This document shows positions 53,963 to 60,961 of a stretch of DNA of 64,000 nucleotides, one piece after another. A program made the translations under genes and the position numbers. The notes below the pieces were generated by a model. That model was not told the origin of the DNA. It did not search any database and saw only the letters and a list, made by a program, of their open reading frames with translations. The stretch's first letter is position 1. Every line of letters begins with the position of its first letter. Source of the DNA: a virus; IMG/VR virus record IMGVR_UViG_3300005617_000008, positions 2,917 to 66,916 of that record; one strand, given 5' to 3'.

Positions 53963-54244
53963 TTATTCGTGTAGCCACTTCTGCGCCAACTCGCGCATCT
54001 TTGCCGGACAATGCGCTCTCGGTTCAAGGTTCCTGCAGTACTCGCAGAGCATGAGGTTGTAGCTGATATTGAATTCCTGTCCGCTCAGAATTGAGAAACC
54101 GCCCCGCTCCGAATGTCGCCCGCGTCCGCTCGCCTGCTGGCGCGTCATATGACAGGCAAGTTGCGATTCAGGCAGGTCGTTAGCCCGCACGAGTTCAAGG
54201 ATGGCGGCGTGTTCATGCTGCGGTAGTGGCTGAAGGGCGTTCAT
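53963..54244 (-). CDS. Hypothetical protein
   Basis: ORF track. Confidence 0.5.
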   Translation of the reverse strand: MNALQPLPQHEHAAILELVRANDLPESQLACHMTRQQASGRGRHSERGGFSILSGQEFNISYNLMLCEYCRNLEPRAHCPAKMRELAQKWLHE

Positions 54245-54367
54245 ATCTCTTCATCCATAAACCGTAAGAATACTGACTGACATTCGGCCTCGACCACCTG
54301 AAGCAGCCGCTCAATTTCTTCATCAGATAAGCCAGCGGGTAGAGGGGCGCTTGCGATCTCCCGCCAC

Positions 54368-55129
54368 TCACCGCCAGTCGATGATTTTCCAGTCCGATCC
54401 ATAAATATCATCCGCCCTCAACTGCGTATACTTCGGTCCGAACCACGGCCTCGGCGCAATCACTCGCTTATCCGGCGCATCGCTCAGCACTGCGGCCATT
54501 GCGGAGTAGCTTGAGTTGGCGATGATAAAGTGTTTGCATTTCTTCATCGACTTGAAATCTTCCAAGTAATCCCGCCCTTCGGAATACTCAACTCCTGAGC
54601 CAAACATTTGCCGCGCTCCTGCAATGTCATCACTGAAGACGAGAAACTTTGCACCGTGGAACTCTTCCATTGCGGGACGATAGTAATCCATTGTCAGTCG
54701 CGGATGATAACCTTCGCCGTCGTTGTAATCCCCCGCGCGCCAATGAATTGCTACGTAGTCATTCTGCGGTGGCTCGTCTTTCATGCGCAATTGCCAACGA
54801 ACCTCGTCAATCGCGTGTGAGAAGAATTTCTCTGATTGCATGTGACCTGATAGGCTGGCGCTCTCAGTCAGGATCTCGTCTCTAAATCCCCAGTCAACGA
54901 ACCTGTCAGGTAATGGCGGTCCATCATAACGGGGTAAGGGATTCTCGAAATACTTCTCAACGTCAATGTCTTCGGTGGAGTTGAATCGCTCACGATGGTC
55001 CCAGTTGCGCCATTCAGGGAATAACGGTATCGCATTGTTCCGTCGTGCTATCCCGATTGTCGAGGCGATCTGGTAGAGCGCGTTGGCCCACCGTCCGTAC
55101 CTCCCCAGCGCTGCAAATGTCACTATCAT
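54368..55129 (-). CDS. GT11 alpha-1,2-fucosyltransferase
   Basis: GRWANALYQ, QSEKFF, VAIHWRAGDY, FSDD, CKHFIIANSSYS, VIAP.PWFG. Confidence 0.9.
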   Translation of the reverse strand: MIVTFAALGRYGRWANALYQIASTIGIARRNNAIPLFPEWRNWDHRERFNSTEDIDVEKYFENPLPRYDGPPLPDRFVDWGFRDEILTESASLSGHMQSEKFFSHAIDEVRWQLRMKDEPPQNDYVAIHWRAGDYNDGEGYHPRLTMDYYRPAMEEFHGAKFLVFSDDIAGARQMFGSGVEYSEGRDYLEDFKSMKKCKHFIIANSSYSAMAAVLSDAPDKRVIAPRPWFGPKYTQLRADDIYGSDWKIIDWR

Positions 55130-55167
55130 AATGAATACTATTTACTCCACAGTTAACGCACCATGCC

Positions 55168-56088
55168 TCACCTTGCTCGTACTGCTCCCACTCGTGCGCA
55201 ATACCAGTCAAAGGTTGAGCGTAGGCCCTCATAGAGATCGATTTTAGCACGCCAGCCCAGGGAGTTGATGCGGGAACTATCAACCAGCTTGCGCGGTGGA
55301 CCGTCAGGCTTAGTGCGGTCGAAGTTAATCGCACCGCGATAGCCAACGATCTCTCTAATGATGTCAGCAAGTTCGTAAGTGGTGACTTCTTGCCCTGAGC
55401 CGACATTGATCGGAGTCTCTTCGTCATAGTCGGCCATCAGCATTATGAGGGCATCCGCAAGGTCGTCTACATGTAAAAACTCGCGCTTGGCTCGCCCGGT
55501 CCCCCACAGCATCACATGCGGCTCTTCGTTGACTGCGGCTCGGTACAGCTTTGACATCAGTGACGGGATTACATGCGCGTCAACGGAGTCAAAGTGATCG
55601 TTTGGGCCATAAAGATTAGTAGGCATTGCGCTAATCGCATTGAACCCGTACTGCTTGCGATAGGCTTGGCACATTTTTAACCCAGCGATCTTTGCTATCG
55701 CGTAGGGCTCGTTTGTCGGCTCCAACGGACCAGTGAGCAATGCGTCTTCCGTCATAGGCTGCCGCGCGTCTCGCGGGTAGATGCAGGAGGAGCCGAGGAA
55801 GAGAAGCTTGCTGACGCCCGTGGCCCATGCGGTATCAATTATATTTGTCTGAATCAGCAAGTTGTCTCGTATAAATAATCCAGGCCGGGTGTTGTTAGCG
55901 TGGATGCCGCCCACTCTTGCCGCCGCAATATAAACATATTGAGGCTTATTCCGTGCGAAGAACTTATCAACGGCAGGTTGTTCCAAAAGATCTAATTGCT
56001 GTCGTGTACGCGTTATCGCATTAGGAATCCGCCGCAGTAACGCGCTTCCTACGAGTCCGGTATGGCCTGCGATGTAGGTGGTGCTCAT
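55168..56088 (-). CDS. fcl: GDP-L-fucose synthase
   Basis: AGHTGLVGSA, AAARVGGI.AN, FLGSSCIYP, LEPTNEPYAIAK, MPTNLYGP, REFLHVDD. Confidence 0.95.
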   Translation of the reverse strand: MSTTYIAGHTGLVGSALLRRIPNAITRTRQQLDLLEQPAVDKFFARNKPQYVYIAAARVGGIHANNTRPGLFIRDNLLIQTNIIDTAWATGVSKLLFLGSSCIYPRDARQPMTEDALLTGPLEPTNEPYAIAKIAGLKMCQAYRKQYGFNAISAMPTNLYGPNDHFDSVDAHVIPSLMSKLYRAAVNEEPHVMLWGTGRAKREFLHVDDLADALIMLMADYDEETPINVGSGQEVTTYELADIIREIVGYRGAINFDRTKPDGPPRKLVDSSRINSLGWRAKIDLYEGLRSTFDWYCARVGAVRAR

Positions 56089-59132: not shown

Positions 59133-59305
59133 TTGGAGTCTTTGTATCCAACACTCTCTGCCGCCGTGTTGGCAATTTCCTCTTCTGTCGCGCCCTTACG
59201 TTTGGCCAGTTCCGCGAGCGCTATGATGATCTTGTTCATGGTCTCAAATGGACTATCGGTCCACGCGATAGCGCCTACTATTTTTTCTAGTGTGGGCTGA
59301 TTCAT
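59129..59305 (-). CDS. Small hypothetical protein
   Basis: Manual translation MNQPTLEKIVGAIAW; coupled. Confidence 0.45.
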   Translation of the reverse strand: MNQPTLEKIVGAIAWTDSPFETMNKIIIALAELAKRKGATEEEIANTAAESVGYKDSK

Positions 59306-60090
59306 CTTAACCTCGCCTCAAATATAGGCGCTGCATGAAGTTTTCCCCAATCTGGGTTACGAATAATCTGCCCTATGGTTTGGTGGTTTGTGTGATATTC
59401 AGCAGCAAGGGATCGGTGCGTACACTGCCCTGACGCATAACGCTCTCGGATCTTTGAGGCATCCAACACCGATAACCGAGACGCTGTTTTGTCGGCTTCT
59501 AAGCACGCGACTTTGATATGCGCCCACGCCTTTCCTTTGATAATGCTGTGAATCAGTCGCGGACTGACGCGATAGCGCTTAGCCAGTGCGGATTGCCCAA
59601 ACTCAGACGACCCCCATCTATAACTTTCCTTAATAGCCACTACGTCCGACGTGCTGAGCTTTGCTAACGGGTGGCCTTCGCCTTGCAGTTCTGGCCGGGA
59701 CAGGGGCCGTACCGTAGTATGTGGCCTTGTGCCGCCTCCGCCGCGAGAACAATTCAGAATGCGTGTAATGCTCGCCATGTTCTTGTGCATTTGAATTGCG
59801 TATATCTCGTGGCTATCTAGCGCTTCTTGTGCTATATCGACAGGCATTGTGTGCAGCACGTCAAGTTGATGCGCTTCCATGCCATGCTTCATCAGTGAGC
59901 GCGCAAGGAGACGCTGGTGCCTGCCACCGTCCCCACCCTTGCCTCTGGCTATTGAGCGGTAGTTCGCTAAGCGAGCCTTTAAGTTCCGAGTCTGGCCGAT
60001 ATATACCGCGCCTGATGGAGACGTGAGCCTGTAGAGCACGGCATTAGGCCAATCGTTTTTCGCTCGCCTCGAAGATTGCGGTATAGTCAT
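59302..60090 (-). CDS. GIY-YIG homing endonuclease with C-terminal HTH/NUMOD repeats
   Basis: VLYRLTSPSGAVYIGQT, GEGHPLAKLS, LAKRYRVS. Confidence 0.85.
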   Translation of the reverse strand: MTIPQSSRRAKNDWPNAVLYRLTSPSGAVYIGQTRNLKARLANYRSIARGKGGDGGRHQRLLARSLMKHGMEAHQLDVLHTMPVDIAQEALDSHEIYAIQMHKNMASITRILNCSRGGGGTRPHTTVRPLSRPELQGEGHPLAKLSTSDVVAIKESYRWGSSEFGQSALAKRYRVSPRLIHSIIKGKAWAHIKVACLEADKTASRLSVLDASKIRERYASGQCTHRSLAAEYHTNHQTIGQIIRNPDWGKLHAAPIFEARLR

Positions 60091-60670
60091 CAATCTCATT
60101 CTTCTGCCAGATAGAACTCCATCGCGGTCTCTGATAAGCAACCATCGGTGCCACACAGAACGCATTCAGCTCAGGCAGTCTCGTTGATAGCCAATTATCA
60201 AACATGATCTCGGATAGAGCGGGTTGCTTAGCTAGAAAATCGTAAACACATTTCCGATTATACCCGATTGCGTGGGTAGTCCACGCCTCAAAAACTCGAA
60301 ACAGGTGCGGTGAATAACGTTGCGGTGGTAAGGGCGCGGACTCGTCTCCGGTATCCCAGCAAACGAGATTCGCTCCAAGGTAGACGATGTCCCAGTCGTC
60401 AGGTAACTCGCTCAACGCCTGCTCCAGATGGCCCAACTCTCTGAACACGCAATCATCCTCGAGATGCAGTAGTGTCTCTGCGTCCGAGAGATAGAATTGA
60501 CAAAGTATCTCTCGCTCTGACTTATTAAATGATTGATGTGGGCCAATGTCAGGGAGAGACTGGAACTTCTCAACCTCAAGACCGACGCGCCGGAGCTCAG
60601 TCTGTGCTAGTTGCCACTCGCTGTCGAGAGTTGTCAGGCAGACGCGGCGCTGAAAGAAGGACCAGTTCAT
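60044..60670 (-). CDS. GT25-like glycosyltransferase
   Basis: LHLEDDC, LPDDWDIVYLGAN, TTHAIGY. Confidence 0.8.
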   Translation of the reverse strand: MNWSFFQRRVCLTTLDSEWQLAQTELRRVGLEVEKFQSLPDIGPHQSFNKSEREILCQFYLSDAETLLHLEDDCVFRELGHLEQALSELPDDWDIVYLGANLVCWDTGDESAPLPPQRYSPHLFRVFEAWTTHAIGYNRKCVYDFLAKQPALSEIMFDNWLSTRLPELNAFCVAPMVAYQRPRWSSIWQKNEIDDYTAIFEASEKRLA

Positions 60671-60760
60671 CCCTTATCAACCTCTGCGCAATAGTCAATC
60701 GCCGCCTGTAGGTCAAGCATCAAAAGGCGGGCGTCTTCCGGCGTGCCAATCTCCCATTCG

Positions 60761-60961
60761 TCACACTGATGGCCCATTGAAAGCCCGCCAGCCTAAATCT
60801 TTAACGTCTACAATCGGCCTAAGCCACGCGTAATCCCCCTCGTCTTCCGACGCGTACACGAAATCAAGCAATCGGAATACGTTAACCCTGCCAAACGCAC
60901 GATCTGGATATCTACCTACCAGCTCATCCCTTTTTTCTTTTGCGTCTTTTTGCCAACTCAT
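60761..60961 (-). CDS. Hypothetical protein
   Basis: MSWQKD start. Confidence 0.45.
   Translation of the reverse strand: MSWQKDAKEKRDELVGRYPDRAFGRVNVFRLLDFVYASEDEGDYAWLRPIVDVKDLGWRAFNGPSV

Follow-up and report, generated by a model that had tools for sequence, protein, structure and literature searches.

Why would a phage keep a run of sugar-transferring and sugar-modifying enzymes among the genes that build its head? We addressed this question for a 64,000-nucleotide stretch of viral DNA (the window; bases 2917–66916 of the 67,055-bp IMG/VR record IMGVR_UViG_3300005617_000008), in which a minus-strand run of predicted glycosyltransferases, methyltransferases and a GDP-L-fucose synthase (positions 53963–60961) lies upstream of the prohead protease and capsid genes. 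To our knowledge, a few actinobacteriophages are the only phages for which glycosylation of the particle has been demonstrated; their glycans shield the virions from antibodies. A sequence-only reading of the window had proposed that the cassette builds a glycan on the phage's own particle. Our analysis indicates that the cassette is probably a late-expressed, cytoplasmic system for O-glycosylation of the virion. This is the best-supported reading because the cassette is fixed in the head operon throughout its clade and because mycobacteriophage Corndog carries transferases at the same position. Position and the tails of two structural proteins speak for the earlier proposal; the acceptor, like the order of transfer, the linkages and the biological role, is something we infer.

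A glycosyltransferase cassette fixed among head genes

To define how far the arrangement extends, we scanned IMG/VR with the capsid protein and with a capsid alignment, which yielded 30 loci (given L numbers below). The cassette-bearing set comprises 22 relatives: 21 IMG/VR loci (48–88% capsid identity; one truncated locus, 32%) and one NCBI metagenome contig. All 22 share the order (MuF), GT25-like, GT-A, variable genes, GT11, (93-aa open reading frame (ORF)), protease, capsid, GT4, with the position of the cassette conserved down to 48% capsid identity. The linkage to head genes that the earlier reading saw in one genome is thus the rule in the relatives, none of which carries the cassette unlinked. 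Four glycosyltransferases (GT25-like, GT-A, GT11 and GT4) form the core and are found in every relative whose sequence reaches the respective position. The features of the window that bear on this arrangement, in the direction of transcription, are as follows.

62899–63786, minus: MuF-like head morphogenesis gene, after the portal across the direct terminal repeat (PF04233, E 0.0019, 19.4 bits, under the cut-off)
60761–60961, minus: 66-aa ORF at the head of the run (ribosome-binding site AGGAG); no homologue in relatives
60044–60670, minus: predicted 208-aa GT25-like glycosyltransferase, core (ESM Atlas features and structure)
59302–60090, minus: GIY-YIG homing endonuclease (phrog_7168, 1.2e-10; PF01541, 0.0022)
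58314–59132, minus: predicted 272-aa GT-A-fold glycosyltransferase, core (structure model and Foldseek)
57916–58332, minus: 138-aa ORF, translationally coupled; no family match, not conserved
57338–57913, minus: 191-aa protein resembling class I S-adenosylmethionine (SAM) methyltransferases, accessory (ESM Atlas; phrog_3603, 2.7e-15)
56964–57341, minus: 125-aa ORF with coupling by an ATGA overlap; L015 and L033 are the only relatives with a homologue
56315–56971, minus: FkbM-family SAM methyltransferase (PF05050)
55168–56088, minus: very likely GDP-L-fucose synthase (Fcl/GMER), accessory (NF047922 and PDB matches)
54368–55129, minus: GT11-like fucosyltransferase, core (PF01531, phrog_2644)
53963–54244, minus: 93-aa small protein between GT11 and protease; conserved, no family match
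52322–53476, minus: S78 prohead protease, downstream border of the cassette (PF04586, 4e-10)
50974–52299, minus: HK97-type major capsid protein (PF05065, 3.1e-30)
50138–50875, minus: HNH homing endonuclease between the capsid gene and GT4 (PF13392, 2.1e-10)
48775–50082, minus: GT4 (GT-B) glycosyltransferase, core (PF00534, PF20706)
40305–40967, minus: probable major tail (tube) protein (position and fold matches)

Capsid and tube proteins share a C-terminal tail

Two structural proteins of this phage end alike. The capsid protein terminates in ...KIDLHSGANS (SGANS codons at about 50977–50991) and the 220-aa product of 40305–40967 in ...FTQNAGAQS (AGAQS codons at about 40308–40322). We take the latter to be the tube protein because of its position, after a Neck1-type gene (phrog_26) and before a chaperone and a 1170-aa tape measure, and because the best Foldseek matches of its low-confidence model (pLDDT 55) are the siphophage tube chains of Bxb1, Douge, SPR and lambda gpV (E 5.6e-4). 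The genome has 413 stop-to-stop frames of at least 60 aa; a G-[AST]-x-S end occurs in just two of them, those of the capsid and tube proteins.

The tails are conserved alongside the cassette. The capsid xGxNS end is kept in 21 of 21 relatives with a readable C-terminus, with G438, N440 and S441 invariant, and a terminal Ser following small residues (GAQS, GATS, GTS, GAS or VGS) closes the tube protein in all ten relatives that can be read there. Eight capsid homologues (25–32% identity) lack the tail and end in ...GSF or ...GTFA; a hidden Markov model (HMM) search of their flanks found no homologue of five cassette families. The C-terminal Ser would thus be the candidate acceptor.

Enzyme families of the cassette

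The sequence-only reading had named a GT25, a GT-A, a class I methyltransferase, an FkbM-like methyltransferase, a GDP-fucose synthase and a GT11 between a gpF-like gene and the protease, and a GT4 after the capsid gene. HMM searches bear out GT11, FkbM and GT4 and point strongly to Fcl, and a structure model bears out the GT-A enzyme; the GT25 assignment finds no backing in Pfam.

The GT11-like protein matches PF01531 (3.5e-13, 49.9 bits against a cut-off of 23.9) over profile positions 149–296 only, and phrog_2644 at 7.7e-37. Its motifs HxRxGDY, FSDD and NSSxSxxAA are invariant, and the best 120 of its 2459 homologues all have PF01531. GT11 is the CAZy family of α-1,2-fucosyltransferases; the enzyme may instead carry out the related protein-O-fucosyltransferase chemistry. 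PDB sequence searches were uninformative for GT11, for the tube protein and for the profile of the 272-aa family. The product of 55168–56088 is very likely a functional Fcl by sequence: it retains the SxC and YxxxK motifs, matches PDB entry 8DU0 (1.9e-101) and E. coli 1E6U (6.8e-96), and aligns to NF047922 over profile positions 4–304 of 308 at 1.4e-134, with 448 bits, below the cut-off of 500. The FkbM protein exceeds the PF05050 cut-off narrowly here (23.4 against 22.7 bits), and every one of 14 family members has a PF05050 match (1.4e-8 at best); it is a candidate sugar O-methyltransferase that may, by analogy with NoeI, O-methylate fucose. For the 191-aa protein, a resemblance to class I SAM methyltransferases comes from the ESM Atlas only (features 0.98; structure TM-score 0.74–0.91 to Methyltransf_11/23 clusters).

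Two further transferases were assigned from embeddings and structure. The 208-aa protein has no Pfam, NCBIfam or PHROGs match, and none of ten family members matches PF01755 at E ≤ 0.1. The ESM Atlas places it near clusters with PF01755 (features 0.97; structure TM-score 0.88), and its LEDD and YLGAN motifs are invariant; embedding and structure thus predict a GT25-like enzyme. A cluster of 408 giant-virus (Nucleocytoviricota) proteins, structurally near the 208-aa protein (TM-score 0.84), fuses GT11 and GT25 domains, an enzyme pair that is split in the present phage. The 272-aa protein likewise lacks any HMM match in Pfam, NCBIfam or PHROGs. Its model, built on 48 sequences, is confident (pLDDT 90.1, pTM 0.89) and in Foldseek matches GT8 enzymes (LARGE1, XXYLT1, LgtC and glycogenin) and GT6 enzymes (GTA, GTB and BoGT6a), each with probability 1.0 and E values of 1e-7 to 1e-5. 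D94, D214 and H261 are invariant or nearly so. A search for homologues returned 2524 representative clusters at E < 1e-3; of 48 diverse homologues, one has a Pfam match. We predict a GT-A-fold, retaining-type glycosyltransferase of an uncurated family, to which no CAZy family could be given.

The fourth core enzyme, GT4, matches PF00534 (6.5e-14, 52 bits), PF20706 (3.3e-8) and several other GT-B families. It directly follows the capsid gene in relatives, whereas an HNH endonuclease intervenes in the present phage. A C-terminal extension of about 85 aa (48775–49030), formed by a small β-rich part and two PxENK repeats, is conserved to as little as 45% identity and might anchor the enzyme on the capsid. 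Co-folding of GT4 with the capsid protein scored 0.34 against 0.00 for the best of three controls (runs agreeing on at least 35% of contacts, partner pLDDT at least 76); of 80 solved complexes 58 pass the mark used, as do 2 of 110 mismatched pairs, but only 7 of the 80 solved complexes pass it with a score of 0.60 or less, the range in which both passing mismatches fall. The co-fold thus speaks weakly for binding and adds little.

Layout, coupling and variable genes

The run had also been described as translationally coupled and flanked by head genes. Tight coupling, by overlapping or abutting frames, is limited to the five central genes between 59132 and 56315 (the 272-aa protein through FkbM). 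Elsewhere, gaps of 90, 169, 226, 39, 124 and 487 nt separate the genes, the 487-nt gap preceding the S78 protease, and the run also holds the GIY-YIG endonuclease and four small ORFs (66, 138, 125 and 93 aa) that match nothing in Pfam, NCBIfam or PHROGs. A scan for promoters and terminators found fewer sites than in shuffled controls and is therefore uninformative on whether the cassette has its own promoter.

At the flanks, the protease and capsid genes stand; the MuF-like (gpF-like) gene that marks the upstream border gives a weak match and is separated from the run by about 1.8 kb (61043–62898) with three small plus-strand ORFs, for which no homologue was found in relatives. In L012, L014, L016, L021, L022, L023 and L033, MuF-like homologues immediately precede the cassette. 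Cassette and MuF-like gene are direct neighbours in L021, which makes the opposite-strand insert within the late operon of the present phage lineage-specific. One of the inserted plus-strand ORFs (61404–61679) encodes a Cys-rich protein with a signal-peptide-like N-terminus.

The locus is a hot spot for mobile endonucleases of the GIY-YIG and HNH kinds. In the present phage the GIY-YIG frame and the 3′ end of the GT25-like gene overlap; copies of the endonuclease occupy varying places in the cassettes of some relatives and are missing from others. Accessory genes vary as well. FkbM is present in most relatives and absent in L022, homologues of the 191-aa methyltransferase occur in L011 and L022 only, and 11 relatives encode the 93-aa protein at 75–95% identity, while three more have diverged copies. 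Gene content between FkbM and Fcl is hypervariable. Many relatives carry immediately upstream of Fcl a conserved ORF of about 150 aa (L003:5430-5894, L004:5383-5847, L006:6024-6473 and L013:2133-2597) that starts like a small GT-A or nucleotidyltransferase, where the present phage has a 226-nt gap (56089–56314) instead; L004 also has a second FkbM-like methyltransferase.

The fucose donor

The sequence-only reading held that the phage supplies its own fucose donor and so has a more complete pathway than lone transferases. That claim fails. No GDP-mannose 4,6-dehydratase (GMD) was found in the complete genome, in five relatives rated 96–100% complete or among the ORFs of the loci that were read, which means that the phage does not supply its own fucose donor, and we rejected a self-sufficient GDP-fucose pathway of GMD plus Fcl on this ground. 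Fcl is the sole PF16363 match in the complete genome. The enzyme is also absent from five cassette-bearing relatives (L011, L022, L023, L024 and L033). Fcl would therefore boost only the last step to GDP-fucose, from GDP-4-keto-6-deoxymannose made by the host, and would be dispensable in some relatives.

The donor need not be the same throughout the clade. In L019 (6052–6849) and L021 (6263–7201), a different epimerase/reductase of the short-chain dehydrogenase/reductase (SDR) family (30–37% identity) takes the place of Fcl. An SDR also stands at this place in L034 (1400–2371), and among the distant relatives with a different SDR, GT11 precedes the SDR. The sugar nucleotide may thus differ between sublineages.

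Comparison with known systems

Virion glycosylation of this type is known from actinobacteriophages. According to secondary literature, mycobacteriophages Che8, Corndog and Myrna bear O-glycans on the C-termini of their capsid and tail-tube subunits, and Che8 gp110 and Corndog gp38 are essential transferases (PMC12619734, PMC12363180, PMC11600133). The same kind of source describes, in cluster O phages, three transferases that come after an O-methyltransferase (gp36–38 and gp35 in Corndog; Freeman et al. 2023, cited through PMC11600133 and PMC12363180), and reports that gp38 clusters structurally with Che8 gp110. The acceptor residue is not specified in structural papers on Corndog, Jabs and HFTV1.

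The closest architectural parallel is Corndog (cluster O). Its record runs from portal gp34 through a TylF-type O-methyltransferase (gp35), gp36, a GT2-like gp37 and gp38 to an S78 protease (gp39) and capsid (gp41), so that a methyltransferase and soluble transferases lie between portal or head genes and the S78 protease, with the capsid after it, as in the present phage. Both encode a GT25-like transferase of similar size (about 206 aa in Corndog), and gp38 is GT25-like by Pfam (PF01755 at 2.9e-5). The Corndog capsid ends in ...VGS and its major tail protein in ...GDS, a Gly-(x)-Ser pattern like that of the present phage. The two cassettes differ in that no pairwise sequence similarity is detectable between them; the present one adds GT11-like, Fcl and a GT4 after the capsid gene, and has an FkbM-type methyltransferase instead of a TylF-type one. 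The present phage, moreover, has about 51% GC and probably comes from a rhizosphere source. An hhalign comparison of the GT25-like family gave E values of 0.003 with Corndog gp38 and 0.002 with Che8 gp110, weak matches with a probability of 10–14% that fall on the LEDD/YLG catalytic motif. With no pairwise similarity and weak profile matches, the likeness to Corndog is one of architecture, enzyme class and acceptor tail, and orthology is not demonstrated.

Che8 (cluster F1) offers a looser parallel. It encodes three soluble transferases, gp108–110, of which gp110 has 211 aa, and its capsid and major tail proteins end in ...TGS and ...DGS. Unlike the present cassette, gp108–110 sit at the right end of the genome and not between head genes, although circularisation would put them just upstream of the terminase and head genes; the regions examined held no methyltransferase, Fcl or GT11. 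As a control, the corresponding proteins of Bxb1, which is not reported to be glycosylated, end in ...SVG and ...DVV, and neither has the tail. Of the features that mark systems of the Che8 and Corndog kind, the present phage has four soluble transferases, linkage to the head module and C-terminal tails on capsid and tube. Its system would therefore be of a known type, from which the clade differs in enzyme set (GT11, Fcl, FkbM and GT4), in sequence and probably in the type of host.

A separate likeness leads to cyanomyophages, which hold nearly all of the nearest cultured-phage GT11 homologues (103 records, 28–35% identity). Islands in S-H68, RN05-S, Bellamy, P-TIM68 and S-SCSM1 combine GT11 with an SDR epimerase and GT25, the SDR and GT25 neighbours being the same kinds of enzyme by annotation only, and P-TIM68 has a homologue of the 272-aa GT-A protein beside its GT11 (162196–163610). 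These islands differ from the present cassette in lying among auxiliary metabolic genes (transaldolase, PstS and hli) and not among head genes, and S-SCSM1 has GMD in addition to Fcl, unlike the present phage. Two GT11 genes, SDR epimerases, a GT25 and a homologue of the GT-A protein occur together in such cyanomyophage islands beside transaldolase and PstS (Synechococcus phage S-H68, L035, 4245–10595; P-TIM68, 162196–163610). The authors of these genomes assume a role in modifying the cell envelope or cell wall.

The chlorovirus PBCV-1 provides a precedent for the chemistry: virus-encoded cytoplasmic machinery places a fucose-containing, O-methylated glycan on its major capsid protein. PBCV-1 differs in being a eukaryotic giant virus with N-linked glycans and a double-jelly-roll capsid protein, and in encoding both GMD and GMER.

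Where the glycan could be built

GT11, GT25 and FkbM enzymes are classically enzymes of lipopolysaccharide (LPS), lipooligosaccharide (LOS) or Nod-factor synthesis, and the cassette could instead remodel a host envelope glycan late in infection (LPS or LOS core, O-antigen, exopolysaccharide or capsule), for example to block superinfection or to prevent adsorption to debris. The enzymes would then act at the cytoplasmic face on lipid-linked intermediates and leave export and attachment to a host flippase and ligase. Soluble transferases can use acceptors linked to undecaprenyl pyrophosphate, and the cyanomyophage sets of GT11, SDR and GT25 (and GT-A) are read as cell-wall genes. This explanation has difficulty, however, with several observations. 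The genome contains no initiating phosphoglycosyl transferase (Bac_transf), no flippase or GtrA/B (no PF04138 match) and no second SDR; hydrophobic segments of transmembrane length are absent from every cassette protein, as the sequence-only reading had noted. The combination of no PF04138 match with no transmembrane protein in the cassette also sets the locus apart from Gtr-type serotype conversion. The late position in the head operon, kept down to 48% capsid identity, and the constant place of GT4 next to the capsid gene also speak against remodelling of the envelope, which would leave unexplained why the capsid and tube carry conserved tails matching those of proven glycosylated phages. 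We consider it unlikely, although it fares best among the alternatives.

A second possibility accepts a virion target and places the glycan elsewhere, on a Ser/Thr-rich 653-aa repeat protein (42926–44887), as the sequence-only reading had suggested, or on a Ser/Thr-rich 154-aa protein encoded after GT4. Both proteins contain 30% Ser plus Thr, and O-glycosylation of Ser/Thr-rich tracts is common in bacteria. Among the relatives, a copy of the 653-aa protein was detected in L012 alone and copies of the 154-aa protein in two, whereas the four core transferases occur in all. With so sparse a distribution, neither is a conserved acceptor, and the earlier suggestion falls in that form; we regard either protein as a rather improbable main target, although both could serve as extra acceptors in the present phage.

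Sugar hypermodification of phage DNA, of the T4-like glucosylation or 5hmC/5hmU glycan kind, for which phages do use GT-A and GT-B enzymes (bioRxiv 10.1101/2023.12.21.572611), was rejected as very unlikely here, because the complete genome has no thymidylate-synthase-like hydroxymethylase (PF00303) and no Tet/JBP dioxygenase (PF12851), and because the cassette lies in the head operon and not in a replication or nucleotide module, with the word 'fucose' occurring 0 times in that preprint.

A model for virion O-glycosylation

With virion O-glycosylation as the probable function, the steps can be sketched from the enzyme classes. The soluble phage glycosyltransferases would build a short glycan on newly made structural proteins, most likely attached to the C-terminal Ser of the capsid (...GANS-COOH) and tube (...GAQS-COOH) proteins. 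For the first transfer we favour the GT25-like enzyme, because the transferase reported to be essential in Corndog, gp38, has a Pfam match to GT25 and reportedly groups in structure with Che8 gp110. GT11 would add fucose from GDP-fucose, and the FkbM and class I methyltransferases would O-methylate sugars; the O-methylated Fuc-α1,2-Gal structure put forward in the sequence-only reading finds no support here. The product may shield the particle or alter its surface properties.

Several points weigh against this model. All of the evidence is comparative, and the glycan itself is deduced from it. The cassette-bearing phages are one clade, so that the link between cassette and tails amounts to about one evolutionary event, plus the two mycobacteriophage lineages. 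The nearest cultured-phage homologues of GT11 and the GT-A enzyme sit in cyanomyophage auxiliary islands, at a distance from the head genes. Lipid-linked or LOS acceptors, for which transmembrane segments are not needed, are the classical substrates of GT11 and GT25 enzymes. The GT25 assignment fails in Pfam and its hhalign link to gp38 and gp110 is weak, the tube model is of low confidence, and secondary citations are our source for the exact acceptor residue in Che8 and Corndog.

Genome setting and host

The record carries a 90-bp direct terminal repeat and is rated 100% complete. Plus-strand early genes extend to about 23.6 kb of the window and minus-strand late genes occupy 24 to 64 kb. 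Across the terminal repeat lie three genes assigned from size and position only, namely a small-terminase-like gene, a large terminase (494 aa) and a portal (492 aa). A rhizosphere metagenome is the only sequencing run found to contain the stretch and may be its source sample; no RNA run was found. No close cultured phage relative was found, blastn matching only the core of Fcl, and the capsid protein as query revealed no prophage relative in 185,579 species genomes. No tRNA genes were found in the phage genome, and a scan for a host clue with the frame at a TnpB locus came back empty, a frame that may be on the wrong strand.

Inspection by eye of the lysis region (24156–28661, minus) showed a holin-like protein with two transmembrane segments (28395–28661), a lipoprotein with an ATAC lipobox (27955–28398) and two coiled-coil proteins with N-terminal transmembrane segments. 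This spanin-like set suggests a diderm host. Among the structural genes lies a PrmA-like methyltransferase core (47054–47515, minus; PF06325, 9e-20), for which no homologue was found in any relative examined, which marks it as an accessory gene outside the conserved system.

Implications for phage particle glycosylation

The present locus adds a conserved cassette with different chemistry, fucose and methylation, which is shared by at least 23 uncultured siphophages of one clade from soil and rhizosphere. The Gly-x-Ser ends shared by capsid and tube suggest that the trait is broader than the known cases and can be recognised from sequence, and they lead us to offer the hypothesis of a C-terminal Ser acceptor and a GT25-like initiating enzyme. 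More tentatively, and with doubt prevailing, small soluble GT25-like transferases may act both in actinobacteriophages and in this unrelated clade of soil phages, probably with Gram-negative hosts, priming a glycan that is here extended to a fucosylated, O-methylated structure. Because GT11 is combined with a GT6/GT8-like retaining GT-A enzyme, that structure could possibly resemble histo-blood-group glycans, and the trait as a whole might prove widespread, modular and predictable from sequence. If virion glycosylation is borne out, the tail and its enzymes could be a portable system for glyco-decorating phage particles, and the GT11/SDR/GT25 islands of cyanophages, currently assumed to act on the envelope, would be due a second look with the virion as an alternative target.

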